Positions 49,516 to 64,000 of a stretch of DNA of 64,000 nucleotides are shown in pieces. Within the stretch, counting starts at the first letter, position 1, and each line of letters opens with the position of its first letter. The notes under the pieces are model-generated. The model made no database searches. It was not told where the DNA came from and saw nothing but the letters and a program-made list of their open reading frames with translations. The DNA is from Lonepinella koalarum (lineage in GTDB: Bacteria; Pseudomonadota; Gammaproteobacteria; Enterobacterales; Pasteurellaceae): positions 46,222 through 110,221 of the forward strand of contig JAUNED010000002.1 of the NCBI GenBank assembly GCA_030525745.1, given 5' to 3'. A program made the position numbers and the translations under genes.

Positions 49516-49546
49516 AAAAGTGCGGTGATTTTTACCGCACTTTTGT
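49516..49546 (+). terminator. USS-pair terminator after dksA
   Basis: AAAAGTGCGGT-gattttt-ACCGCACTTTTG. Confidence 0.6.
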
Positions 49547-49573
49547 CGTCTATAATGAATGTAGGAGTAAGCT

Positions 49574-50989
49574 ATTTTAACTTACATAAAAAGAATTTTT
49601 GATAAAAAATCCTCTTCCGGCGTTAAAAAAGAAATATCTCAAGAAAGCCAAAGAAACGAACTCAATTTATCAAAAATCAATAAAACAAAATATGTCATTA
49701 ACGCTTCCCAATTAGGTATTAATGCCCGTCAAATGAGTCGTAATGCGCTGACTATTGTAGAAAAATTACAGCGTAACGGTTTTGAAGCTTATATTGTCGG
49801 TGGTTGTTTGCGTGATTTGCTTCTAGGAAAGCAACCAAAGGATTTTGACGTAGCAACCAATGCCCGTCCGGAGCAAATTCAAGCCATTTTTCAACGTCAA
49901 TGTCGCTTGGTGGGGCGACGTTTTCGCTTGGCACACATTCTGTTTGGGCGTGATGTGATTGAAGTCGCTACTTTTCGAGCCAATCATAATGAAAAACACA
50001 GTGAACATCAATCTCGACAAAATGAAGATGGTATGTTACTGCGAGATAATGTGTATGGTTCTTTGGAACAAGATGCAGAACGTCGCGATTTCACTGTAAA
50101 CGCCCTCTATTACAATCCGAAAAATAATACCCTACTGGATTATTATAATGGATTAAATGATCTAAAAGCAGGTAAATTACGCTTGATCGGTGAACCTACT
50201 ACCCGTTATCAGGAAGATCCTGTACGAATGTTACGCGCCATTCGTTTTATGGCTAAATTAGATATGTTCTTGGATAAAGACACGGAAAAACCAATTAAAA
50301 CCTTAGCGCATTTATTGAAAAATATTCCGCCTGCTCGCTTATTCGATGAAAGTTTGAAATTATTGCAATCAGGAAATGGGGTTAAAACCTACCATTTATT
50401 GCGTCAATACGGTTTATTTCAACTGCTTTTCCCGACGTTAATGCCTTTTTTTACAGAAAAAGAAGACAGTCTCGCAGAACGTATGATTGTCAAAGCCCTT
50501 TCTTCTACCGATGAGCGAATTGCTGATAATTTACGGATTAATCCTGCTTTTTTATTTGCTGCATTTTATTGGTATCCTCTACGGGAAAAAGTGGAAATAC
50601 TAAAAAACGAAGGTGGTCTAAATAACCACGATGCTTATGCTTTAGCCGGAAACGAGCTATTGGATCAGATTTGTGCCACTATTGCAGCACCACGCCGACA
50701 TACCGCAGTTATCCGTGATATTTGGTTTTTACAACTGCAATTGATGAAACGACATGGCAAAGCACCACAACGCACAATGGAACAAACTAAATTCCGTGCG
50801 GGTTATGATTTGTTGGCTATGCGTGCGGAACTTGAAGGCTCGGAAACTATTGAATTAGCTACTTGGTGGCATGAATATCAATTGAGTAATCAAGAACAGC
50901 GCGATATTTTGGTACAAGAACAAAATCAAAAGTCGCCAAAACCGAAAAAACGCTATCGCAGACGTAGTCCTAAAAAGGCGGTAAAATAA
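49574..50989 (+). CDS. pcnB: Poly(A) polymerase I, probably initiated at a non-canonical AUU codon
   Basis: The ATG ORF (49733..50989) aligns with E. coli PcnB from residue about 54 onward. The in-frame upstream 53 codons continue the alignment (…VINASQLGINARQMSRNAL… vs …VIPREQHAISRKDISENAL…). That upstream frame has no ATG/GTG. An AGGAG SD sits 6 nt before ATT at 49574 (AUU UUA ACU…), mirroring the known E. coli pcnB AUU start. Confidence 0.8.
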   Translation: MLTYIKRIFDKKSSSGVKKEISQESQRNELNLSKINKTKYVINASQLGINARQMSRNALTIVEKLQRNGFEAYIVGGCLRDLLLGKQPKDFDVATNARPEQIQAIFQRQCRLVGRRFRLAHILFGRDVIEVATFRANHNEKHSEHQSRQNEDGMLLRDNVYGSLEQDAERRDFTVNALYYNPKNNTLLDYYNGLNDLKAGKLRLIGEPTTRYQEDPVRMLRAIRFMAKLDMFLDKDTEKPIKTLAHLLKNIPPARLFDESLKLLQSGNGVKTYHLLRQYGLFQLLFPTLMPFFTEKEDSLAERMIVKALSSTDERIADNLRINPAFLFAAFYWYPLREKVEILKNEGGLNNHDAYALAGNELLDQICATIAAPRRHTAVIRDIWFLQLQLMKRHGKAPQRTMEQTKFRAGYDLLAMRAELEGSETIELATWWHEYQLSNQEQRDILVQEQNQKSPKPKKRYRRRSPKKAVK

Positions 50990-51465
50990 TGATTACTGCT
51001 TATATCGCTCTCGGTAGCAATTTAAACTCACCGGTAGAACAATTGCAATCTGCATTAAAATCTATCCATGATTTACCTCATACTCAACTTACACATTGCA
51101 GTGCTTTTTATCAAAGTAAACCGTTAGGACCACAAGATCAGCCGGATTATGTGAATGCAGTTGCCTGTATAGAAACAACATTATCTCCCCTTGAATTACT
51201 CGATGAATTACAACGTATTGAAAATGAGCAAGGACGCATACGCCTACGCCGCTGGGGAGAACGCACACTTGATTTGGATATATTGCTCTATGGTGATTTA
51301 CAGATAGAATCTGAACGCTTAACACTTCCTCATTATGATATGAAAAACCGGGAATTTGTCATCATTCCTTTATTGGAAATTGCACCACAATTAATTTTAC
51401 CTTGCGGTGATCGGGTAACAGATTTAGCCACACAATTTTCTACACATCAAATGCAAAAACGATAA
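50989..51465 (+). CDS. folK: 2-amino-4-hydroxy-6-hydroxymethyldihydropteridine pyrophosphokinase
   Basis: 158 aa. MITAYIALGSNL… HPPK signature. TAATG overlap with pcnB as in E. coli. Confidence 0.9.
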   Translation: MITAYIALGSNLNSPVEQLQSALKSIHDLPHTQLTHCSAFYQSKPLGPQDQPDYVNAVACIETTLSPLELLDELQRIENEQGRIRLRRWGERTLDLDILLYGDLQIESERLTLPHYDMKNREFVIIPLLEIAPQLILPCGDRVTDLATQFSTHQMQKR

Positions 51466-51505
51466 AAAAAGCCCGAATAATAAAGGGAATTCGGGCCATT
51501 TTTAA
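51464..51505. terminator. Bidirectional terminator between folK and fabA
   Basis: AAAAAAA-GCCCGAAT-(loop)-ATTCGGGC-CATTTTT. Confidence 0.5.
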
Positions 51506-51527
51506 ATGAGTTGTAAGTTATTGTTCG

Positions 51528-52061
51528 TTAAAAGGTTGAAGTATCTTGGAATAAACCCACTTTTAAATCTGTAGCGGTATAAATGACACGCCCATCAACT
51601 TCTACTTCGCCATCGGCAAGCCCCATCACTAATTTACGGTTAATCACCCGTTTTAAGTGAATACGGTAAACGACTTTTTTAGCCGTCGGTAAAATTTGAC
51701 CGGTAAATTTGACTTCACCTACACCTAATGCTCGACCTTTTCCTTCACCACCGATCCAACCTAAGTAGAATCCGACCAATTGCCACATAGCATCAAGACC
51801 TAAACAACCCGGCATGACAGGATCATTGATAAAGTGACAACCGAAAAAGAATAAATCCGGACGAATATCTAATTCCGCTTCCACATAACCTTTACCGAAT
51901 AAACCACCGGTTTCATTCATCTCAATGATACGATCCATCATCAACATTGTCGGTGCAGGTAATTGAGGGCCTTTCTCCCCAAAGAGTTCGCCACGACCAG
52001 AAGCTAATAAATCCTCATAATCATAGGCATTTTTACGATTCGGAATACAAGTGTTTTGCAT
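51528..52061 (-). CDS. fabA: 3-hydroxydecanoyl-ACP dehydratase/isomerase
   Basis: 177 aa. Nearly collinear with E. coli FabA (…[25 protein letters not shown]……[22 protein letters not shown]…). Confidence 0.95.
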
Positions 52062-52186
52062 TTTTTGTTCTCTGTGTTAAATATCATTTTCTCAAATAGC
52101 CGAATAGCTAAGAGATATAAGCATTTTCACAGAGTTTCACATGGAAGTAAATAGCGAACACTTGTTAGCTAAACTTATCGGATCAG

Positions 52187-53953
52187 TTATTTTTTAGTAA
52201 ACCATTTCAACCAAATCGGTACAGAGGAACGCTCAGCTTCCGAATATTGTTCTATGCGTTTAGAAATCACTTGATTTAATGGTAACTCATTGTTTTTATA
52301 AGATTTACCTTCCTGTTCCAATAAATCACGTTCAAATAAAATCTCACAAGTTTGATGAATATCTTCGACTGCCCAAATAAAAAATTGCTGATTTTCTACC
52401 GCACTTTTAACTTCATCTGTTAGAGATAATTGATGAATAACCGTTGTAGGAATAATCACACCTTGTTTACCCGTCAAACCACGGGATTTACAAATGTCAA
52501 AAAAACCTTCAATTTTGCTGTTTACTCCTCCTACAGAATGAACTAAACCAAATTGATCGATTGTACCCGTAATCGCAATAGATTGCGGTAAGGGTAAATC
52601 AGATAATGCACTGAGCAAGACACAACAGGCGGCCAAAGAAGCACTATCCCCATCAATTTCGCCATAAGACTGTTCAAACACAAGACTTGCAGAAAAAGGT
52701 AATTGAGAGGGAAAATCAAATAAATGAGATAGACAGGCTTGAGCTATCATCATTCCTTTTCCGTGCAAATTACCGGCCAAATCACTTTTTCTTTCAATAT
52801 CTATAACTTCTCCATCACCAAATTGTACAATACAACTCAAACGGGAAGGTTCACCAAAACATACCGGCGTCCCCGGATATTCAATCACAGATAAGCCGTT
52901 AATCTGCCCTACGACTTCACCATCAGTATCAATGTAAATTTGCTCATTTAAAATGTCGCTGTAAGTACGTTCCTGCAAAAAGCCTTGTTGATACTGTTTT
53001 TGCTGAAAAGCTTGCTCAAAATCTACCGCACTTAAGATAGAATTTGGCTGATTAAAGCCTGCCGAACTAATCCAATCCGTTAAAACCCTTGGTGAAATTG
53101 AGACTAAACCACGCTCTTCACTTTCACGAACGAATAATTGATAGAGTTTTTCAATCGCATTTTCGCTTAATGTCAGCTTTTGTTGTTCGCCTAAACATCG
53201 AACATAATTCGCCCAACCTTGCTGATTTTGTTCATTTTCCAAACTGAAATAGCTTTCAATTTCGGCATAATCTGCCCATTGATAAAGCCCTGTTTCCAAC
53301 TCAGAAAAAGTGGCTAACTCTTCTCGATTTCCCAATAAAATGACTTTTAAATTCAATGGAAAAGAGGGAATATCGCAAGGTAACGCCTTAAACGGATGAG
53401 CAGAATACCAATCAAAGTGTTTTGTCATTAAAATGTGTTTTAAACGTTCCCACAAATCAAATTGGCGTAACAATCCTGCAAGGGAGAGAATTAATATACC
53501 GCCATTCACTTGATGCACAAGACCTGAATTTAATTGAATATCTTTTGAACTCGGGTGAATACGGATTGAGCCCAATAATTGATTTTGGTCGAAATATAAT
53601 GCGGTAGCCACCTTTTTTTGAGAGGCAAAATTATCTGCATGAGAGGTCGCAGGTTGAGCCGAAATTTTCGGAAAAGAAAAACTGTCTGCCTGTTCAATCA
53701 AATAATGCACACCAAAAATATCACTCTTTAGTGCTTGATTTAATTCTACAAAATTTTCTACTGCATTAGCATATTCCGCCAAATCATCCACTTTCAACAT
53801 CAATAAAGTGCGGTGTGAATTTTGCAAGAATTGACGAATTGCACTACTCGCCCTTGGTTGTAAATCAAAGAAATTTACAGGTTGAGTAGCCTGAGTAAAT
53901 TCTAGTCTTGGTTGTAATAATTCAGCAGATAAAAGTAATTCAGTTGATCTCAC
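52187..53953 (-). CDS. Lon-like ATP-dependent protease (YcbZ family)
   Basis: 588 aa. C-terminal Lon protease S16 fold. Conserved position next to fabA/matP as E. coli ycbZ. Confidence 0.7.
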   Translation of the reverse strand: MRSTELLLSAELLQPRLEFTQATQPVNFFDLQPRASSAIRQFLQNSHRTLLMLKVDDLAEYANAVENFVELNQALKSDIFGVHYLIEQADSFSFPKISAQPATSHADNFASQKKVATALYFDQNQLLGSIRIHPSSKDIQLNSGLVHQVNGGILILSLAGLLRQFDLWERLKHILMTKHFDWYSAHPFKALPCDIPSFPLNLKVILLGNREELATFSELETGLYQWADYAEIESYFSLENEQNQQGWANYVRCLGEQQKLTLSENAIEKLYQLFVRESEERGLVSISPRVLTDWISSAGFNQPNSILSAVDFEQAFQQKQYQQGFLQERTYSDILNEQIYIDTDGEVVGQINGLSVIEYPGTPVCFGEPSRLSCIVQFGDGEVIDIERKSDLAGNLHGKGMMIAQACLSHLFDFPSQLPFSASLVFEQSYGEIDGDSASLAACCVLLSALSDLPLPQSIAITGTIDQFGLVHSVGGVNSKIEGFFDICKSRGLTGKQGVIIPTTVIHQLSLTDEVKSAVENQQFFIWAVEDIHQTCEILFERDLLEQEGKSYKNNELPLNQVISKRIEQYSEAERSSVPIWLKWFTKK

Positions 53954-54054
53954 GGCTTCATTAAGTCCTTAATTTGAAATTTAATCTATTATCGCACAAA
54001 ATCCATAAAATTCAGTAGAAAAACACAATTAAAAAGCGTATATTTAGGTTATTA

Positions 54055-54067
54055 GTGACAACGTAAC
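54055..54067. promoter_or_regulatory. matS-like site GTGACAACGTAAC (consensus GTGACRNYGTCAC, 1 mismatch) immediately upstream of matP
   Basis: The 13-mer is 15 bp upstream of the matP ATG. Confidence 0.35.
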
Positions 54068-54081
54068 CAAAATAATAAGAA

Positions 54082-54528
54082 ATGAAATACCAAAAATTAG
54101 AAAATCAGGAAAGCCATTGGAAATGGCTTTATCTCACAAAAAAATATCGTGAAGGCGAGCCGATTACCCGCTATGAAGAACGCAGTTTAGCTGAAGATAA
54201 AAGCAAACAATTAATTTTGGCCAAAAATAATCCCACAGAAATAGAACAATGGATTAAAGAACATATGGGCGAATTTTTGGTGGTTAAATTAGATCAAGCA
54301 ATCAGAGCAAGGCGTAAACGTTTTTTCAATGCAGAAAAACAACATACCCGTAAAAAATCCATTAATTTGGATTATGCCGTATGGCAACGGCTTTCACGCT
54401 ACTCACGAAAAATGAATATGACCTTATCGGAAACTATTACTTATATGATTGATGAACGTGAAAGTAAGGTTCTATTTGAAAATCAAATGTCAGCGATGAA
54501 AGCAGGTTTAAAAGATTTATTAAAGTAA
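54082..54528 (+). CDS. matP: Macrodomain Ter protein MatP
   Basis: 148 aa. MKYQKLENQESHWKWLYLTKKYREGE… aligns with E. coli MatP (YcbG). Confidence 0.85.
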   Translation: MKYQKLENQESHWKWLYLTKKYREGEPITRYEERSLAEDKSKQLILAKNNPTEIEQWIKEHMGEFLVVKLDQAIRARRKRFFNAEKQHTRKKSINLDYAVWQRLSRYSRKMNMTLSETITYMIDERESKVLFENQMSAMKAGLKDLLK

Positions 54529-54567
54529 AAACGGCAATTTAAATTCAAATTGCCGTGAATATTCCAG

Positions 54568-55371
54568 TTAAGTGTTAATCATTATTCGAGAAATCCGGCC
54601 TGATTCTATCTCCTCTTCCCGAATAGTCATTACTTCACAGCCGTTATCTGTGACTACAATTTGATGCTCAAACTGTGCGGAATGACTACGATCTTTGGTT
54701 TTCACGGTCCAACCGTCTCCCATCAAACGCACTTCTTTCTTACCGGCATTAATCATAGGCTCAATGGTAAATACCATGCCTTTTTGTAAAATCACACCAC
54801 CGTCATCACCATAGTAATGTAACACTTGAGGCTCACTGTGAAATTGATCACCAATACCATGACCACAGTATTCACGTACCACACTAAAACCTTGTGCCTC
54901 CGTATATTGCTGTACGGCACGACCAATTTCACGCAGACGAATCCCCGGTTTAACTACTCTCAAACCAACATATAACGCCTCTTGAGCTGCTTCCACTAAC
55001 TTTTGGCTACGAATATTGGTTTCACCTACAATAAACATTTTGGAATTATCACCAAAATAACCGTCTTTAATTACCGTCACATCAATATTTAAAATATCGC
55101 CGTTTTTCAACACTTTTTCATCGCTCGGAATACCGTGACAAACCACTTCATTCAGTGAAATACATGTGGCTTTCGGATAACCGTGATAATTCAAGCAAGC
55201 AGGAATCACTTTTTGTTCATTTACCATATAATCGTGGCAAATACGATCCAATTCCCCCGTTGTCACTCCGGCTTTTATATAAGGTTCAATCATGACTAAC
55301 ACATCTGCGGCCAATTTACAGGATTCACGCAATTTAATGAGTTCTTCTTCTGTTCTTAATGGAATTGCCAT
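54568..55371 (-). CDS. map: Methionine aminopeptidase (type I)
   Basis: MAIPLRTEEELIKLRESC…; metal ligands D, D, H, E, E in conserved positions. Start is at MAIPL…; the track's 5-codon extension is rejected. Confidence 0.95.
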   Translation of the reverse strand: MAIPLRTEEELIKLRESCKLAADVLVMIEPYIKAGVTTGELDRICHDYMVNEQKVIPACLNYHGYPKATCISLNEVVCHGIPSDEKVLKNGDILNIDVTVIKDGYFGDNSKMFIVGETNIRSQKLVEAAQEALYVGLRVVKPGIRLREIGRAVQQYTEAQGFSVVREYCGHGIGDQFHSEPQVLHYYGDDGGVILQKGMVFTIEPMINAGKKEVRLMGDGWTVKTKDRSHSAQFEHQIVVTDNGCEVMTIREEEIESGRISRIMINT

Positions 55372-55498
55372 TTTGTTACTCCTCAAAATTTGTCCGTCTA
55401 TGATAACACCAATCCGCCTTTATGTGAAAATATCCTTGAATGAAATAGTCGGTTATTGGATAATAACCCCAATTTTTTATTCTTAATTAGGAAAGTAT

Positions 55499-55840
55499 AT
55501 GTCAGATATTTCAATTCCGTTGAATTTTACAGATGCAGCGGCAAATAAAGTGAAATCCTTAATTAGTGATGAGGAAAATCCTAATTTAAAATTACGGGTT
55601 TATATCACCGGTGGCGGCTGTAGCGGTTTCCAATACGGATTTACCTTTGATGAAAAAATCAATGACGGCGATCTGACTATTGAAAAATTGGGAGTACATT
55701 TAGTTATCGATCCCATGAGCCTACAATATCTTATCGGAGGCACAGTGGATTATACAGAAGGCTTAGACGGCTCTCGCTTCGTTGTACAAAACCCCAATGC
55801 TTCCAGTACCTGTGGATGTGGCTCATCATTTAGCATTTAG
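55499..55840 (+). CDS. erpA: Iron-sulfur cluster insertion protein ErpA (A-type carrier)
   Basis: 113 aa. IscA/HesB family with the three conserved Cys (…GGGCSGF… and C-terminal CGCGSSF). Confidence 0.85.
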
Positions 55841-56035
55841 TCTTGATAAAAAGTGCGGTCATAAAACAAAATGAATTTCGTCCGCACTTTTTACATTCAA
55901 TCGTCAATATCGTCTTTTATCTCTTCTTCTCTGCAAATCTACATATCTTACCCGATAAAAATTATGGTTTCATTTATCTAATGAAATATAATAAAATTCA
56001 TGAAAATCAACCAATCCAATATTGAGGAATAAATA

Positions 56036-57705
56036 ATGAGCCAACAGCCAACAGCCAACAGCGTGATCTCAACGCTGCCACAAGTCAAGCCTTTTTAAAC
56101 GATCTCGACCAAACCCTTTGGACAGCCGCCGACAAGCTGCGTAAAAACCTAGACGCCGCCAATTACAAACACATCGTTCTTGGCTTTATCTTCTTAAAAT
56201 ACATCTCCGACAGCTTTACCGATTTCCAAGCCAAGCTAAAAACCCAACTCACCACGCCCGAAAGCGAACTCTATCTTGACCCTGCACTATTTGACGCACA
56301 AGAATTTAGCCAAATTCTTGCCGAAGAGTTGGAACAGCGGGATTACTATGCAGCCGAAAACATCTTCTGGGTGCCGGAGCAAGCCCGCTGGGACAACATC
56401 AAATCATTAAGCAAACTCAATCTTGGCGATGAATTGCCTTGGGGAGACAAATTTAAAGGTGTCAGCCGCTTGATTGATGATGCCTTTGAAGCCATCGAGC
56501 GAGAAAACCCCAAACTCAAAGGCGTACTCCAACGCATTGCCGGCTTTGGCGTGCCTGATGAAATGCTCACAGGCTTGATTGACCTGTTCTCACGCACCAA
56601 TTTCACCCAGCCGATGCACAATGGCGAACCCGTCCATCTGCAAGCCAAAGACATTTTGGGACACGTCTATGAATACTTTCTTGGACAATTTGCCCTTGCC
56701 GAAGGCAAAAAAGGCGGTCAATACTTCACGCCCAAATCCATCGTTACCTTAATTGTTGAAATGCTCGAACCCTATTCAGGGCGGATTTACGATCCGGCAA
56801 TGGGCAGCGGTGGATTTTTTGTGCAAGCCGACCGCTTTATTCAGGCTCACGCTGGCAACCGCAACGCCATTTCCGTTTATGGGCAAGAATCCAACCCCAC
56901 CACCCGCAAACTGGCGGTGATGAATATGGCAATTCGTGGCATTCCCTTTGACTTTGGCGACAAACCCGAAGATACCCTGCTCAACCCCCTGCACATCGAC
57001 AGAAAAATGGATGTTGTGATGGCAAATCCGCCCTTTAACCAAAAAGAGTGGTGGAGTGAAAGCCTAGCAAACGACCCACGCTGGGCATACGGCACACCGC
57101 CGCAAGGCAACGCCAACTTTGCGTGGCTGCAACATATGATTTACCACCTCTCCCCCAAAGGCAAAATGGCACTCCTGCTCGCTAACGGCTCAATGAGCAG
57201 CCAAACCTCAGGCGAAGGCGACATTCGCAAAAACATCGTGCAAGCCGACCTTGTCGAAGCGATGATTGCCCTGCCCAATCAGCTATTCACCAACACCCAA
57301 ATCCCTGCCTGCATTTGGATTATCAATAAAGCCAAAGCCAGAAAAGGTGAAGTGCTGTTTATCAACGCCACCCAAATCGGCTATATGAAAGACCGCGTCT
57401 TGCGTGATTTCACCGTTGATGACATCGCCAAAATCAGCGACACCTACCACAACTGGCAAAAACAGAACGGCTACGAAAATATCCCTGCGTTTTGTTATTG
57501 TGCCACGCTGGACGAAATCGCCAAAAACGATTTTGTGCTGACCGCAGGGCGGTATGTCGGTGCGATACAAGAAGAAGATGACGGCGTGCCGTTTGCAGAA
57601 AAAATGCAGGAATTGACTGCTTTATTAAATGAACAATTTAAACAGGGGCAGGAATTGGAACAGCAAATCGTAGAGAATTTAAAGGGATTGGGATATGGCA
57701 TTTAA
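56036..57705 (+). CDS. hsdM: Type I R-M methyltransferase subunit HsdM, interrupted. The ATG frame stops after 20 codons; the conserved HsdM N-terminus continues in the +2 frame (possible phase-variable OFF state or frameshift pseudogene)
   Basis: The ATG at 56036 has a GAGGA SD 8 nt upstream. In its frame MSQQPTANSVISTLPQVKPF is followed by TAA at 56096. The frame that carries LNDLDQTLWTAADKLRKNLDAANYKHIVLGFIFLKYISD…NPPF… (N6-adenine MTase motifs) is open from 56026 to 57705 but has no ATG before 56329. The (CCAACAG)3 tract lies between them. Confidence 0.8.
56039..56061 (+). repeat. Heptanucleotide simple-sequence repeat (AGCCAAC/CCAACAG) x3.3 at codons 2-9 of hsdM
   Basis: Read directly: ag CCAACAG CCAACAG CCAACAG cg. 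Four or one copies would fuse the ATG to the HsdM frame. Confidence 0.75.
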
Positions 57706-58999
57706 TCAGTATGTATTTTCAGATATTGTTGAATTAATATCCGAAAAAGTAAAAATTAAAGACTTAAAAAAAGAAAACTATATTTCGACAGATAATATGC
57801 TGCCTAATTTTGGCGGAATAACACCTGCTGAAAATCTTCCAAATTCAAATTCTTGCAATAGGTTTGCCAAAAAAGACATTTTGTTTTCCAATATAAGAAC
57901 CTACTTTAAAAAAGTTTGGCTTGCTGAATTTTCAGGTGGTTGTTCTCCTGATGTTTTGGTAATGCGTAGTAAAAATACAGATATTTTATTAAATGAGTAT
58001 TTATTTTTACTTATCCGTTCTGATGATTTTATTAACTTTACAGTTATATCAGCAAATGGGGCAAAAATGCCTCGCGGCGATAAAAATGCAATGAAAAATT
58101 TTCTTTTCAATATCCCAAGTATTGAATATCAAAAAAAATGTATTGCCAATTATTTTGCCTTTGACCAAAAAATCCAACTCAACACCCAAACCAACCAAAC
58201 CCTAGAAGCCATTGCACAGGCGATATTCAAAAGCTGGTTTGTGGATTTTGACCCTGTGCGTGCCAAAGCAGCCGCCCTAAGCGAAGGCAAAAGCGAACAC
58301 GAAGCCAACCTTGCGGCAATGTCGGTGATTTGTGGCAAAGACACCAGCGAGTTAAACGACACCGAATACAAAGCGCTTTGGCAAATCGCCGAAGCCTTCC
58401 CAAGTGAGCTTGTGGAAAATGAACAATTTGGCGAAGTGCCGAAGGGGTGGGAAGTGAAGCCGCTAGATAATATTGCCAATTACCAAAATGGTTTGGCTTT
58501 ACAAAAATTCCGACCTGAAAATAATGAGACTTTTTTGCCTGTCGTTAAAATTGCACAATTACGGCAAGGTTATGCAGATGGAGAAGAAAAAGCAAGTGCT
58601 GATATAAAACCTGAATGTATTATTGATAATGGAGATATTATTTTCTCTTGGTCTGGTACCTTAATGGTTGATATATGGTGTGGCGGTAAGGCTGCCTTAA
58701 ATCAGCATTTATTTAAAGTTACATCAAATCATTATCCAAAATGGTTTTATTATCTTTGGACAAAGTACCATTTAGCTGAATTTCAACGAATTGCAGCAGA
58801 TAAAGCAGTAACAATGGGACATATTAAGCGTGAGCATTTATCACAAGCATTGTGTGCTGTGCCTGATGATAATTTTTTAAACTTGTACAACTCTATCAGC
58901 AATGTATTAGATTTAATTATCGCAAATAGAATTGAAAATTTTGATTTAGCTAAAACAAGAGATTTTTTATTACCTAAATTGTTGAGTGGGGAGGTTTAA
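57695..58999 (+). CDS. hsdS: Type I R-M specificity subunit HsdS (two target-recognition domains)
   Basis: 434 aa. Overlaps the hsdM stop by 11 nt. AT-rich TRD1 (about 57700-58150), GC-rich conserved central region (about 58150-58480), AT-rich TRD2. C-terminal conserved LPKLLSGE. Confidence 0.85.
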   Translation: MAFNQYVFSDIVELISEKVKIKDLKKENYISTDNMLPNFGGITPAENLPNSNSCNRFAKKDILFSNIRTYFKKVWLAEFSGGCSPDVLVMRSKNTDILLNEYLFLLIRSDDFINFTVISANGAKMPRGDKNAMKNFLFNIPSIEYQKKCIANYFAFDQKIQLNTQTNQTLEAIAQAIFKSWFVDFDPVRAKAAALSEGKSEHEANLAAMSVICGKDTSELNDTEYKALWQIAEAFPSELVENEQFGEVPKGWEVKPLDNIANYQNGLALQKFRPENNETFLPVVKIAQLRQGYADGEEKASADIKPECIIDNGDIIFSWSGTLMVDIWCGGKAALNQHLFKVTSNHYPKWFYYLWTKYHLAEFQRIAADKAVTMGHIKREHLSQALCAVPDDNFLNLYNSISNVLDLIIANRIENFDLAKTRDFLLPKLLSGEV

Positions 59000-59001
59000 T
59001 T

Positions 59002-59904
59002 ATGAACCAAAAAGAAATCATTAAACAAGAGCAACAAGCATTACTGGAAAATGCTTGCTCGTCTTTACAGCTTGGAATTGATGACTATCTTCTTTCAGAA
59101 GAAAATAAAAATAGAAGATTATCATCTGTTCGTAATTTTATCAGTGGATTATTACTTCTCTATAAATACAAGTTATTTATTGAAAGCAAAGGAGATGACC
59201 CATATGAGTTTATCCGAGCAAGAAGAAATAATAGTACCTCTAGACCAGTACATACTGTTAATGTAAAAGATATCAAGAGCAAACTAAGTTTTCTCAATAT
59301 AACAATCAATGAAAATTTGCTAGATAGTGTAATTTCTGCAAGAAATAACTTAGAACACTTTTTCTTACCAGAAGAAACCAACCCAATAGAGATTATCCAT
59401 CAATCTTATATTTTACTATCTGAATTTTTTATTCAATATTTATCTGAACTAGGGACACTTGAAGAGTTTATATCATCTACATACTATAAAACTCTATTAG
59501 ATATAGATGAAGCATATAAAGAAATAGAAAAGCAGTGCCAAAATAGTTTAAATAAAATTGATGATTATCCTACTTATGATGTTGAAGATGTATTATTAGA
59601 AAATGCAAGATGCCCTTTTTGTAAATCATCGTTAATAAAATATGAAGATGGAAATTACCCAAATTTAAAATTTAGTTGTTATGGGTGTAATAAAGGTAAG
59701 TATCTTGACATTTATGAGTTATTAGGAATTACACATCGTGTTATTCGTCAAGGAGGAGATATTCGTTCAATTTGCTATGATGAAGATTGTGGTGATGTTA
59801 ATGTCATAGATGGGGTTTGTTTTACTTGTGGATACAAACATGACCCAAATAGAGATTATGAAAGTGAAGCTCGTTTAAAGTATTTAGCAAATAAAGATGA
59901 TTAA
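59002..59904 (+). CDS. Uncharacterised 300-aa protein embedded in the R-M operon. Candidate HEPN-like domain (R114-x4-H119: SARNNLEHF) plus a C-terminal double zinc ribbon (CPFC…CYGC, CYDEDC…CFTC)
   Basis: The ATG is 2 nt after the hsdS stop (TAATTATG), so it looks co-transcribed and coupled. Very AT-rich. No Walker motifs. Four CxxC pairs in the last 90 aa. An R-x4-H motif closes an N-terminal helical region. Confidence 0.65.
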   Translation: MNQKEIIKQEQQALLENACSSLQLGIDDYLLSEENKNRRLSSVRNFISGLLLLYKYKLFIESKGDDPYEFIRARRNNSTSRPVHTVNVKDIKSKLSFLNITINENLLDSVISARNNLEHFFLPEETNPIEIIHQSYILLSEFFIQYLSELGTLEEFISSTYYKTLLDIDEAYKEIEKQCQNSLNKIDDYPTYDVEDVLLENARCPFCKSSLIKYEDGNYPNLKFSCYGCNKGKYLDIYELLGITHRVIRQGGDIRSICYDEDCGDVNVIDGVCFTCGYKHDPNRDYESEARLKYLANKDD

Positions 59905-59980
59905 ATCCTTAGGATAATAAATTTCCCATACAATCAATAATCGGTTAAAAAATTAAGAATTTTTCAATTTATAAAATGGG

Positions 59981-60294
59981 TGTACGCAGTACGCCCCTAC
60001 AATCGGAGTTCTAATTTATACATGAGCGAAAATAATGTTCCTTCAGGATTTTAATTTACATTTAAACCAAAATAATGCTCGAATGTAGGGGCGTATGTCA
60101 TACGCCCACAATAACATAAATCCCAACGGATAAACGTGAATAATGTTCCGTTTAAGCGTACGCTGTACGCCCAAACAATCGGGTTTTTAAATTTATATTT
60201 GAGCAAGAATAATGCTCATATGTAGGGGCGTATTGCATACGCCCACAATAACATAAATCCCAGAGGGTAAACCTAAATAAAACATCATGTTCCC
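59981..60294. repeat. Tandem duplication of a roughly 140-bp composite element. Two sub-units (GTACGCnGTACGCCC…AATCGG…GAGC.A.AATAATG.TC and AATAATGCTC..ATGTAGGGGCGTAT..CATACGCCCACAATAACATAAATCCCA..GG.TAAAC)
   Basis: Unit 1 is 59981-60149 and unit 2 is 60156-60294, about 80-90% identical by eye. Each has a perfect palindrome GGGCGTAT-nnn-ATACGCCC (60092-60108 and 60228-60245) and a GTACGC dyad. Unit 2 runs into the brnA 3' end. Confidence 0.6.
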
Positions 60295-60602
60295 GTACGC
60301 TCAGCCTGTTTTAGAAAATCGCTGAGGACTTGATTGATTTTGCTTTGCCAGCCTTTGCCGTAGGCTCTAAAACCTTCTACCACGTTTTTATCCAAACGGA
60401 GGGAGACGGCTTCTTTTTGTGAACCTGTCGGTCTGCCTCGTTTTTTGATGGCGGTAGCAAATTCTGCTGGGCTAACAGGGCGTTCATCTTCATCGATGCC
60501 GTCCCAGACAAAATCTTGATCGTCCGGAATGGCTTTAACGGCGGCGAGCAGCTGTTTTTTGGTTAAGGTTTTATTCGTCAAGGTTTTGTTGTAGGTATTC
60601 AT
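60285..60602 (-). CDS. brnA: BrnA-type antitoxin (BrnT/BrnA type II TA system)
   Basis: 105 aa. Conserved BrnA C-terminal block (…VSLRLDKNVVEGFRAYGKGWQSKINQVL…). Overlaps the upstream brnT by about 30 nt. Confidence 0.75.
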   Translation of the reverse strand: MNTYNKTLTNKTLTKKQLLAAVKAIPDDQDFVWDGIDEDERPVSPAEFATAIKKRGRPTGSQKEAVSLRLDKNVVEGFRAYGKGWQSKINQVLSDFLKQAERTGT

Positions 60603-60864
60603 AATATGCCTCTCTTTCGGCTTTGGACGCTGGGCGAAAACTGATTAATCGAATGCAATTTTCTCGTTCGGTATGGGCTAGGGATAACACCAATAATCGC
60701 CCGAAAGAATAGGCGAATGATTGGGTTCGGACTTCATTATTGCGGATCGTTTCAACATCAAATCGGTAGGGCGAAGATAACACTTCGTCCGCATCGGCAA
60801 AATCTAAACCGTGTTTGGCGAGATTGATTTGACGTTTGTTTTCGTCCCAAATGTAAATTTTCAT
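60571..60864 (-). CDS. brnT: BrnT-type ribonuclease toxin (DUF497)
   Basis: MKIYIWDENKRQINLAKHGLDFADADEVL……RLISFR.A…ER.YYE is the BrnT signature. Start is at the first ATG; the upstream TTG-initiated extension is rejected. Confidence 0.75.
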   Translation of the reverse strand: MKIYIWDENKRQINLAKHGLDFADADEVLSSPYRFDVETIRNNEVRTQSFAYSFGRLLVLSLAHTERENCIRLISFRPASKAEREAYYEYLQQNLDE

Positions 60865-60989
60865 AATTATTGTATATACATAAAATAAATGCAACGACTA
60901 TATTCAACAACCTAACAGAAACAAAATACAAAATCCGATTGGATTGCTATTTTTTCGATCCAGATCCCAAAAATAAAAAAGGACACACT

Positions 60990-63900
60990 ATGCTGATCAA
61001 CGAAAACACCATTGAACAATCCGCCATTGCGACTTTGCAAAGCTTGGGCTGGCAATACACCTACGGCAAAACGATTTTGGCAGGTTTAGAACACGAATGG
61101 CGGGAGCGAACCGCTGAGGTGATTTTAAAGCCGCTACTTGCTGAAGCGATTGCAAAATTCAACCCGAATTTGCCCGCTTGTGAGGTGGAAAATGTGGTGG
61201 CACAGGTGTGCCGTGCCGACAGTGGAGATTTGGTGGAGCGTAACCGTCAGGCTTATGATTGGCTAAGAAATGGGGTCAAAATCACTTATCAGCAAGACGG
61301 CGAGCAGGTGTCTGATGTGGTGCAGCTGATTGATTTTCAGCGTCCAGAAAACAACGATTTTCGCATTGTCAATCAGCTGGATATTGGCGGTAAAAAAGGC
61401 AAACGCATTCCTGATTTGATTGGCTTTGTTAATGGCTTGCCACTGGTGGTATTTGAGCTGAAAAATCCGCTCAAAGAAAATGCCGACATTGGCAAGGCGT
61501 TTGCCCAACTGCAAACCTATAAAGATGAAATTTCTGATTTGTTTGTGTTTAATCAGGCACTCGTGATTTCAGACGGCATTGTCGCCCGTATCGGTTCGCT
61601 GACCGCCGATTTCGACCGTTTTACCCCTTGGCGTGTGGTTGATGAAAAAAATCAGAGCAAACGCATTGTGTTTGAAGATGAACTCACCGCCCTACTGCAA
61701 GGCGTAATGACACCGCAAAATCTGCTGGATTATGTGCAGAATTTTGTGGTGTTTGAACGAGATGGCAAAAACCGCTTGATTAAAAAAATCGGGGCGTATC
61801 ATCAGTTTTATGGCGTGAATGAAGCGGTGGATTGCACCTTGCTTGCCGCCACAGGCAACCGCAAAATCGGTGTGTTTTGGCATACGCAAGGTTCGGGCAA
61901 ATCCCTTTCGATGCTGTTTTATGCCGGCAAAGTATTAAGTCAAGGCTACCTGAAAAACCCGACATTAGTACTCGTTACCGACCGCAACGATTTGGACGGT
62001 CAGCTTTACGCCACTTTTTGCGGTGGTGAGGCACTGCTCAAACAAACGCCAATCCAAGCCGATGGGCGAGACGAACTCCGCTCTGCCCTTGCCAGTCGTT
62101 CAGCAGGCGGTGTGATTTTTACCACCATTCAAAAATTCGGCTTAATGGAGGGCGAGCTTGCCCACCCTGTATTAAACGAGCGGGAAAACATCATTGTGAT
62201 TACCGATGAGGCACACCGCTCGCAATATGGTTTTAGCCAAAAAATCAACCACAAAGGCGAGTATCGTGAGGGGTACGCCAAGCACTTACGCAGTGCATTG
62301 CCGAATGCGTCCTTTATTGGTTTTACCGGCACGCCGATTGCCCTTGATGACAAAGATACCCAAGAAGTCTTCGGTAAATATGTCTCGATTTATGACTTTG
62401 AAGATGCGGTGGAAGATGGGGCAACCGTGCCGATTATTTATGAGCCACGCCAAATCAGCTTAGGCGAAAGTGGCGAGTTTTCCAAAGTGATGGAAGAGGC
62501 ACAACAACTGATTGATGACGATGAAAACAGCTATAACTTCCGCCTGCGTGAAAAACTGCACAGCGTGGATAGCCGTTTGCAGAAAATGGCGGAAGATATT
62601 ATTGCCCATTACGATGAGCGTACCAAACAGCAAGACGGCAAGGCGATGGTTGTGGTGATGAGCCGTGCCATTTGCGTCAAACTCTACGACAAAATCACCG
62701 CACTTCGCCCCGAATGGCACTCAAACGATGTGCTTCAAGGCAGCATTAAAATTGTGATGACAAGCAATGCCAGCGACCCTGCCGAGTGGCAAATACATAA
62801 TCAGGACAAAAAAACCTTAGAAAAACGCTTTAAAGACCCAGACGATCCACTCAAAATCGTGATTGTGCGGGATATGTGGCTGACAGGGTTTGATGCCCCT
62901 TGTTGTAACACAATGTATATTGATAAACCAATGAGCGGACACAACCTGATGCAGGCAATCGCTCGGGTCAATCGGGTATTTCGCAATAAAAGCCGTGAAA
63001 ATGGCGGCTTGATTGTGGATTATGTCGGCTTGACCGATGAGCTGGAAAAAGCGATGAAGCAATACACCAACGCAGGCGGCAAAGAAAAGCCGGTGCGAGA
63101 CATTTCAGCGGTGCTGGAAAAAATGGTGGAACACATCACGGTCATTCGTGGGCAATTTGCCACGCCGATTGACGGACAAGCGGTTGATATTGCCAAAATT
63201 TTGCAAATCAGCGAACCTGCCAAACTGCTCAATGCGATTTTGACATCAGCCAACCATATTCTTGCCCTAGACCGCATTCAGCCAACCGATAACACTGCCA
63301 AAGACAAAACCCCACGCAAAAGCGCTTTTTTACAGTCGGTACGCTTGGCGAAAAAAGGTTATGCTTTGTGTGGGGCAATGAAAGCAGTTGAGCCCTATAA
63401 ACAGGAATTGGCGTTTTATGATGCGGTGCGTGCCACCATCATCAAAAACAGCGCCTCCCCCCGCAATCCTTCGGGTGAAGACCGCTTGTTGCAACTTACC
63501 GCCTTGATGAACCGTGCAGTACAGTCGGACGGCGTGGTGGATTTATTTGATTTGCTGAAAAAAGACCGCCCAAACATCAACCTGCTTTCCGATGAGTTTT
63601 TGGAAACAGTGAAAAACAGCCCAACCAAAGATTTGTGGCTGTCGGCAATGGAGCGTTATCTTGCTGCCAAACTGCGTGAACAAAGCGGTGCCAATCTTGC
63701 CACCAAAAAAGCATTTGAACAAAAACTCAAAGAGGCGATGAACCAATACCACAACCACAATTTAAGCGTATTGGAAATTTTAGAAGAGCTGATCGCCCTT
63801 GCCAAAGAGTTTGAAGCCCGCCAAAAACGAGGGGAAGCGTTGGGACTAAGCCCTGCGGAAATGGCGTTTTATGATGCTTTAGCACGCAACGAAAGTGCGG

Positions 63901-64000
63901 TGCGGGAAATGGGCGATGAAGTGTTGATGAACCTTGCCAAAGACATCACCGACAAATTACGCAAATCCGTCACCGTAGATTGGCAATATAAAGACTCGGT
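60990..64000 (+). CDS. hsdR: Type I R-M restriction subunit HsdR, 3'-partial (runs off the window; hand-translated, so absent from the ORF track)
   Basis: The ATG at 60990 has an AGGA SD 6 nt upstream. The open frame runs to the window end (1003 codons). It carries an N-terminal PD-(D/E)XK region (…VVFELKNP…), SF2 helicase motifs (WHTQGSGKSLSM, VITDEAHRSQ, GFTGTP) and GC-rich codon usage like hsdM. Confidence 0.9.
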   Translation, partial: MLINENTIEQSAIATLQSLGWQYTYGKTILAGLEHEWRERTAEVILKPLLAEAIAKFNPNLPACEVENVVAQVCRADSGDLVERNRQAYDWLRNGVKITYQQDGEQVSDVVQLIDFQRPENNDFRIVNQLDIGGKKGKRIPDLIGFVNGLPLVVFELKNPLKENADIGKAFAQLQTYKDEISDLFVFNQALVISDGIVARIGSLTADFDRFTPWRVVDEKNQSKRIVFEDELTALLQGVMTPQNLLDYVQNFVVFERDGKNRLIKKIGAYHQFYGVNEAVDCTLLAATGNRKIGVFWHTQGSGKSLSMLFYAGKVLSQGYLKNPTLVLVTDRNDLDGQLYATFCGGEALLKQTPIQADGRDELRSALASRSAGGVIFTTIQKFGLMEGELAHPVLNERENIIVITDEAHRSQYGFSQKINHKGEYREGYAKHLRSALPNASFIGFTGTPIALDDKDTQEVFGKYVSIYDFEDAVEDGATVPIIYEPRQISLGESGEFSKVMEEAQQLIDDDENSYNFRLREKLHSVDSRLQKMAEDIIAHYDERTKQQDGKAMVVVMSRAICVKLYDKITALRPEWHSNDVLQGSIKIVMTSNASDPAEWQIHNQDKKTLEKRFKDPDDPLKIVIVRDMWLTGFDAPCCNTMYIDKPMSGHNLMQAIARVNRVFRNKSRENGGLIVDYVGLTDELEKAMKQYTNAGGKEKPVRDISAVLEKMVEHITVIRGQFATPIDGQAVDIAKILQISEPAKLLNAILTSANHILALDRIQPTDNTAKDKTPRKSAFLQSVRLAKKGYALCGAMKAVEPYKQELAFYDAVRATIIKNSASPRNPSGEDRLLQLTALMNRAVQSDGVVDLFDLLKKDRPNINLLSDEFLETVKNSPTKDLWLSAMERYLAAKLREQSGANLATKKAFEQKLKEAMNQYHNHNLSVLEILEELIALAKEFEARQKRGEALGLSPAEMAFYDALARNESAVREMGDEVLMNLAKDITDKLRKSVTVDWQYKDS

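Follow-up and report, generated by a model that had tools for sequence, protein, structure and literature searches.

The hsdM gene considered here lies in a metagenome-assembled genome (MAG) of Lonepinella koalarum and starts with a well-placed ATG, which is followed from the second codon by a heptanucleotide repeat. The frame that opens at this ATG closes long before the conserved part of the protein is reached, and the question is whether such a gene is dead or represents the OFF state of a switch, in which changes in the repeat number connect the start codon to the coding region and disconnect it again. A phase-variable switch had been predicted from the letters of the DNA. The analysis of the whole stretch, 64 kb in length and called the window below, of tract lengths in related strains and of homologous genes indicates that the repeat is likely to be a slipped-strand simple sequence repeat (SSR) switch at codon 2 of a Type I hsdM located on an acquired island.

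Tract and reading frames

The start codon and its Shine-Dalgarno sequence (Table 1) were read directly, and TRF places a perfect period-7 tract right behind them, at 56039–56062, with the unit AGCCAAC in 3.4 copies (24 nt, 100% match). The same tract may be read as CCAACAG, three times at 56041–56061, which was the register of the original prediction, or be written as ATGA(GCCAACA)nGCG. No other perfect repeat in the 64 kb has a unit of 4–9 nt in three or more copies, and none of this kind arose when the window was simulated 300 times with a first-order Markov model, so the tract exceeds chance expectation. As a perfect intra-ORF repeat with a unit length not divisible by three, it falls among those accepted by SSR surveys, at their minimum of three copies.

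The ATG frame reads MSQQPTANSVISTLPQVKPF and then meets the TAA that had been predicted to end it after 20 codons. The coding region of HsdM occupies a different frame, open from the TGA at 56023–56025 to the TAA at 57703–57705 and overlapping the ATG frame by 60 nt, in which the HsdM N-terminal domain PF12161 (2.3e-21) is followed by the N6-adenine methyltransferase domain PF02384 (4.5e-114), each scoring above its gathering cutoff. A scan of this frame at 56026–56329 found no ATG, GTG or TTG ahead of the first possible start, the TTG at 56329, which has no properly spaced Shine-Dalgarno sequence ahead of it, and the first ATG is at 56563. The start-free interval measures 293 nt. Because the frame has no earlier start, the N-terminal 98 conserved residues of HsdM could not be made at three copies.

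The consequences of adding or removing units were followed in an in silico rebuild of the gene with n = 0–12 units. A protein of 551–572 amino acids is obtained only at n = 1, 4, 7 and 10, and every other copy number gives a product of 7–41 amino acids, which bears out the prediction that one copy or four copies would restore full-length HsdM.

The region upstream of the gene contains a possible −10 hexamer, and this TATAAT is kept in the homologous intergenic region of a related strain (contig L094), where AAGGA aligns with the GAGGA of the window. A consensus scan upstream of hsdM called no full promoter and found no convincing promoter or terminator.

The restriction-modification locus

Past the tract, hsdM runs for 1.64 kb without a stop, and its product is 96% identical to the intact HsdM of Mannheimia haemolytica. 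Both domains of a Type I HsdM are found, and its partners hsdS and hsdR are present and apparently intact. The order of the locus is hsdM, hsdS, a gene of the PDC-S64 family, a pair of 137-nt repeats, brnA/brnT and hsdR (Table 1). The proteins of the window are on record under a Lonepinella koalarum MAG (MDO4429905–911).

Table 1. Features of the hsdM locus, in window coordinates
Feature	Position	Strand	Evidence or remark
Possible −10 hexamer TATAAT of the hsdMS promoter	55987–55992	+	Seen in the sequence; tentative
Shine-Dalgarno sequence GAGGA	56024–56028	+	7 nt ahead of the hsdM ATG; read directly
hsdM start codon, ATG	56036–56038	+	Read directly
20-codon out-of-frame ORF of the three-copy (predicted OFF) state	56036–56098	+	TAA at 56096–56098
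hsdM body (HsdM_N and N6_Mtase)	56063–57705	+	Frame unreachable from the ATG at three copies
hsdS, 434 aa	57695–58999	+	Pfam Methylase_S, 3.2e-20; 11-nt overlap with the end of hsdM
PDC-S64 gene, 300 aa	59002–59904	+	PADLOC candidate defence family, 6.6e-89; 2 nt past hsdS
brnA	60288–60602	-	Pfam BrnA_antitoxin, 6.1e-16
brnT	60574–60885	-	Pfam BrnT_toxin, 1.5e-19
hsdR	60990–64000, past the window end	+	PADLOC REase_I, E = 0; TIGR00348, 2.1e-201

An exact look-up of the HsdS of the window returned no record. The alignment of hsdS to that of M. haemolytica is limited to the first ~730 nt, the second half being unrelated. The comparison suggests that one target-recognition domain has been swapped, which would give a hybrid recognition sequence sharing one half-site.

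The 300-amino-acid gene downstream of hsdS has a GC content of ~29–30%, and the C-terminal part of its product is rich in cysteines (CPFC...CYGC...C..C). It is a candidate defence gene inside the Type I locus. The original prediction spoke of an embedded nuclease, a description that is not supported: the gene matches PDC-S64 only, no Pfam or NCBIfam family is matched at significance, and the single DpnI match is sub-threshold (E = 0.074).

Between this gene and brnA, at 59975–60301, are two units of ~137 nt (78% match), each with a GC-rich palindrome of the form GTAGGGGCGTATG.CATACGCCCAC, and a related palindrome is located near 59980. The units resemble small intergenic repeat elements, and a contig of the Logan collection, L082, terminates within them. 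The brnTA pair (60288–60885, minus strand) splits hsdS from hsdR. The ATG of hsdR aligns with the start of the M. haemolytica HsdR, and the gene has its own upstream region beyond brnTA; its frame stays open up to the edge of the window, over more than 1000 codons, and the 3' end falls outside.

Several features set the locus apart from the chromosome around it. The GC content of hsdM and hsdR is 48–50% and that of the flanking chromosome ~36%. The window contains 48 uptake signal sequences of the Hin type, none of which falls in the 6.8-kb stretch between 55851 and 62697, and two of the Apl type are found inside hsdR. In related strains (L084, L085, L086 and L091) erpA is followed directly by sdaC-sdaA and the island is absent; among MatP-cluster relatives, the P0123 contigs show the same empty erpA-sdaC site, and the synteny around P0124 and P0122 is different. 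DNA identity to the hsdMSR operon of M. haemolytica is 95–96%, both for hsdM with the initial ~730 nt of hsdS (95.8% over 56044–58423) and for hsdR (95% over 60996–64000). In a scan of GTDB the best match came from M. haemolytica, and the genome that represents the Lonepinella species yielded no copy of this hsdM. The GC content, the gap in uptake sequences, the empty sites and the identity to Mannheimia together indicate that the R-M locus at 55841–64000 is a horizontally acquired island, and they suggest that it passed recently between the lineages of Mannheimia and Lonepinella.

Tract length in near-identical and related strains

The Logan contig L001 (run SRR24915833) matches positions 49516–56062 of the window with no mismatch (6547 bases, 100% identity) and continues the tract to ATGA(GCCAACA)4G, so that it carries at least four copies versus three in the window. 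A second contig of this run, L082, agrees with 58759–60107 at every base. Over the 7.9 kb compared in total, the tract length is the sole difference between the two assemblies.

The pure tract at the end of L001 measures exactly 30 nt. Logan assemblies are de Bruijn graphs with k = 31 that contain each 31-mer only once (PMC12424806), and a break at 30 nt, that is at k-1, would be expected from a branch node if reads with at least five copies exist. The end could instead reflect low coverage, in which case at least four copies is the certain figure. The three-copy MAG and the Logan version with at least four copies could also go back to separate runs or to strains living side by side, and not to switching inside one clone.

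The related strain represented by contig L094 (run SRR21590383) shares a homologous intergenic region between erpA and hsdM and carries, at the same chromosomal site, at least 6.7 copies, of which one is impure. Its sequence is ATGACTAAC(AGCCAAC)3 AACCAAC (AGCCAAC)2 AGCCA, and the contig ends in the tract. Thus, tract length differs between closely related strains (L001 and L094), in the case of L001 with unchanged flanks, as read from assembled contigs and not from read counts. The protein databases returned no ON-state protein of the exact window allele. A search with a seven-repeat N-terminal query gave mostly short fragments and no ON allele from Lonepinella, together with a Cardiobacterium-like protein, P0164, which is in frame and carries the AGCCAAC repeat.

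Homologous hsdM genes

A census with one genome per species comprised 53 closer homologues (65–95% identity) from Pasteurellaceae, Moraxella, Cardiobacterium, Eikenella and Neisseria, and 26 distant ones from Acinetobacter and others. Perfect tracts of 4-, 5- or 7-nt units in 3–26 copies, located 2–19 nt after an ATG, are found in 37 of the 53 closer homologues and in none of the 26 distant ones, which supports the earlier statement that short repeats are a habit of these R-M genes. The ATG at this distance upstream of the tract is present in 32 homologues, and 13 distinct repeat units occur.

The comparison of repeat counts that had been proposed places nine of the 37 tract-bearing genes in frame and 23 out of frame, with five at contig ends, and the in-frame share fits the one-third expected from a random copy number (binomial p = 0.58). 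An allele of the H. parainfluenzae type is found with 3, 5, 9 and 17 copies between identical flanks. At five homologous loci the contigs begin or end in their own tract. The type strain of M. haemolytica, DSM 10531 (L002), lacks a tract altogether.

The unit AGCCAAC itself recurs at the equivalent 5' position of two less similar hsdM genes, those of Muribacter muris and of a Cardiobacterium MAG (73% and 65% identity, correspondingly), with different flanks and in different hosts. The tract of Muribacter contains 7.7 perfect copies, one impure copy and three more, counted from a contig edge, and is therefore longer (at least 11 copies) than that of Lonepinella, as is the tract of Cardiobacterium (7.1 copies), which is in the OFF frame. 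To our knowledge, AGCCAAC tracts in the hsdM of these two organisms have not been the subject of a publication. A metagenome scan for (AGCCAAC)3AGC gave at least 120 loci, and none of those listed (L095–L214) encodes an HsdM relative as judged by tblastn. Perfect (AGCCAAC)n tracts are common among the unrelated environmental metagenome contigs listed, some of which have several long runs.

It is possible, as a tentative reading, that codon 2 of hsdM is a hot spot where tracts are repeatedly born or exchanged. Three observations lead to it: the 13 units found at one site across host-adapted Pasteurellaceae, Moraxella and Cardiobacterium, the different units, ACAGC in Mannheimia and AGCCAAC in Lonepinella, that end at the same junction in genes with 95–96% DNA identity, and the presence of AGCCAAC in hsdM genes only 65–73% identical. 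If this were true, selection would act on switchability itself, through turnover of units or through the swap of a 5' cassette together with the promoter, and the three-copy allele of Lonepinella would be a young or a contracting tract.

Comparison with known phase-variable systems

The hsdM of M. haemolytica is the same gene by its sequence identity, and it has been published as phase-variable with the tract ACAGC[10–40] (Atack et al. 2020, FASEB J, PMC7383803). In both organisms the tract follows the start codon directly and the junction, ...ACAGC/GTGATCTCAACGCTG, is identical. The unit is of 7 nt in Lonepinella (AGCCAAC), unlike the 5 nt in Mannheimia (ACAGC), and the three copies found here compare with ~27 in M. 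haemolytica L215. The region upstream, with the promoter and the Shine-Dalgarno sequence, and the second half of hsdS are unrelated between the two. The PDC-S64 gene, the 137-nt repeats and brnTA, which separate hsdS from hsdR in the window, have no counterpart in the contiguous operon of Mannheimia. The host of the window carries Hin-type uptake sequences, not the Apl type of the Mannheimia comparison. As a near-identical orthologue of a gene already published as phase-variable, the Lonepinella hsdM joins a known kind. AGCCAAC is not among the repeat units named in the text of the papers cited here.

A second relative, HI1287 of H. influenzae, is a homologous HsdM (~70% identity to the closest Haemophilus alleles) with a repeat in the 5' coding region that is likewise not a multiple of three. 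Its tract, (GACGA/CGAGA)n, is short (1–10 copies); H. influenzae hsdM is given as phase-variable with CGAGA[3–10] in a survey with a threshold of three copies (Atack et al. 2020, PMC7383803). In strain Rd the gene is truncated by its own repeat (Power et al. 2009, PMC2651432). The change from (GACGA)4 to three copies is reported to be as fast as that of tetranucleotide tracts of far greater length (Zaleski 2005, via PMC2651432), and switching was measured experimentally through sensitivity to phage HP1c1 (Zaleski et al. 2005; PMC2651432). The repeat of HI1287 is a pentanucleotide, unlike that of Lonepinella, and its switching is experimental, whereas for Lonepinella slippage, its rate and its phenotypic consequences are inferred.

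The Type III mod phasevarions of Haemophilus, Neisseria, Moraxella and Actinobacillus, with tetra- and pentanucleotide repeats in mod (PMC7383803, PMC1976455), are similar in that a repeat in the coding region of a methyltransferase gene causes random ON/OFF switching of genome-wide methylation. They differ in the enzyme class, which is Mod/Res, and several of them have an inactive restriction gene and a demonstrated regulatory role. The Lonepinella locus is filed as a candidate phase-variable R-M system, not as a phasevarion.

Proposed mechanism and its alternatives

In the mechanism that we consider likely, replication slippage would add or remove 7-nt units in ATGA(GCCAACA)nGCG. At n = 1, 4, 7 and so on, the ATG would read into full-length HsdM, the ON state, while the assembled genotype with n = 3 would be OFF through the stop after 20 codons. 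The gain of one unit would restore MSQQPTANSQQRDLNAATSQAFLNDLDQTLW... and turn the whole R-M system ON. A cell lacking HsdM would be able to form neither the M2S1 methylase nor the R2M2S1 restriction complex. HsdR works only in complex with M2S1, and as methylation and restriction would be lost together, the OFF state would not be self-toxic. The 11-nt overlap of hsdS with hsdM indicates that the translation of hsdS may fall as well in the OFF state.

The original prediction went further and let the whole island switch together with its embedded gene. The joint loss of methylation and restriction is indeed expected, but hsdR has its own upstream region, and the co-switching of the PDC-S64 gene would depend on transcriptional polarity of the OFF state, which is possible; the statement on the whole island therefore overreaches. 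Slippage rates generally fall with tract length, and as three copies (24 nt) are the lowest length accepted in surveys, switching in Lonepinella may be slow. The activity of HI1287 with four repeats indicates that short tracts of this hsdM family can be active.

The prediction of a candidate switch is strengthened by the observed length difference in L001 (at least four copies), the at least 6.7 copies of L094 and the tract of the M. haemolytica orthologue, published as phase-variable, and the anatomy of the tract, the arithmetic of its frames and the family-wide pattern point the same way. The same data bear on the alternatives. A contracted remnant locked OFF, in an R-M system that is being lost, would be in line with the three copies, which are the minimum of the family, and with the absence of the island from related strains, where erpA is followed by sdaC-sdaA and which marks it as dispensable. 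Such a pseudogene is nevertheless unlikely, since the rest of hsdM is open, hsdS is intact and hsdR is open to the end of the window, while a near-identical sequence has at least four copies and the H. influenzae homologue switches with only four repeats. A different doubt concerns the assembly: the true copy number might be stable, for instance four and ON, and the tract mis-resolved by the assembler of the MAG. The window does come from a metagenome-assembled genome, an independent assembly of the identical strain has at least four copies, and the five homologous loci with contigs that break in the tract show that assemblers struggle there. We consider such an artefact very improbable, because a tract of 24 nt is far below the read length and the k-mers of final contigs, so that its collapse would not be expected, and because even with a miscount the scatter of ON and OFF frames across the family argues for a variable tract.

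HsdM could in principle also be produced from the three-copy allele by translational bypass, with the ribosome either changing frame in a programmed manner on the repeat or starting anew past the 20-codon ORF. The 60-nt overlap of the two frames is the sole ground for considering such a bypass, and no evidence in its favour was found. Re-initiation would have to pass over the start-free region at 56026–56329 and use the TTG at 56329 with its lack of a spaced Shine-Dalgarno sequence, no known slippery motif was seen in the tract, and the two thirds of the homologues that are out of frame fall in either of the two wrong frames, which fits mutation and not recoding. This explanation is barely credible. 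The slipped-strand switch thus remains the preferred interpretation of the hsdM tract.

Implications

The “frameshifted” hsdM of Lonepinella is probably not a dead gene and serves as a warning to annotators; the consensus sequences of MAGs hide the heterogeneity of tract length. The census, with tracts in 37 of 53 closer homologues, 13 units and about one third of the genes in frame, is a resource on the origin of such switches. With a switchable Type I system, a clonal population would comprise both restricting, methylating cells and cells with neither activity, and switching would alter phage resistance, DNA uptake and, possibly through methylation, gene expression. If real, the switch would extend a mechanism of Pasteurellaceae pathogens of humans and livestock to a gut and oral symbiont of marsupials.
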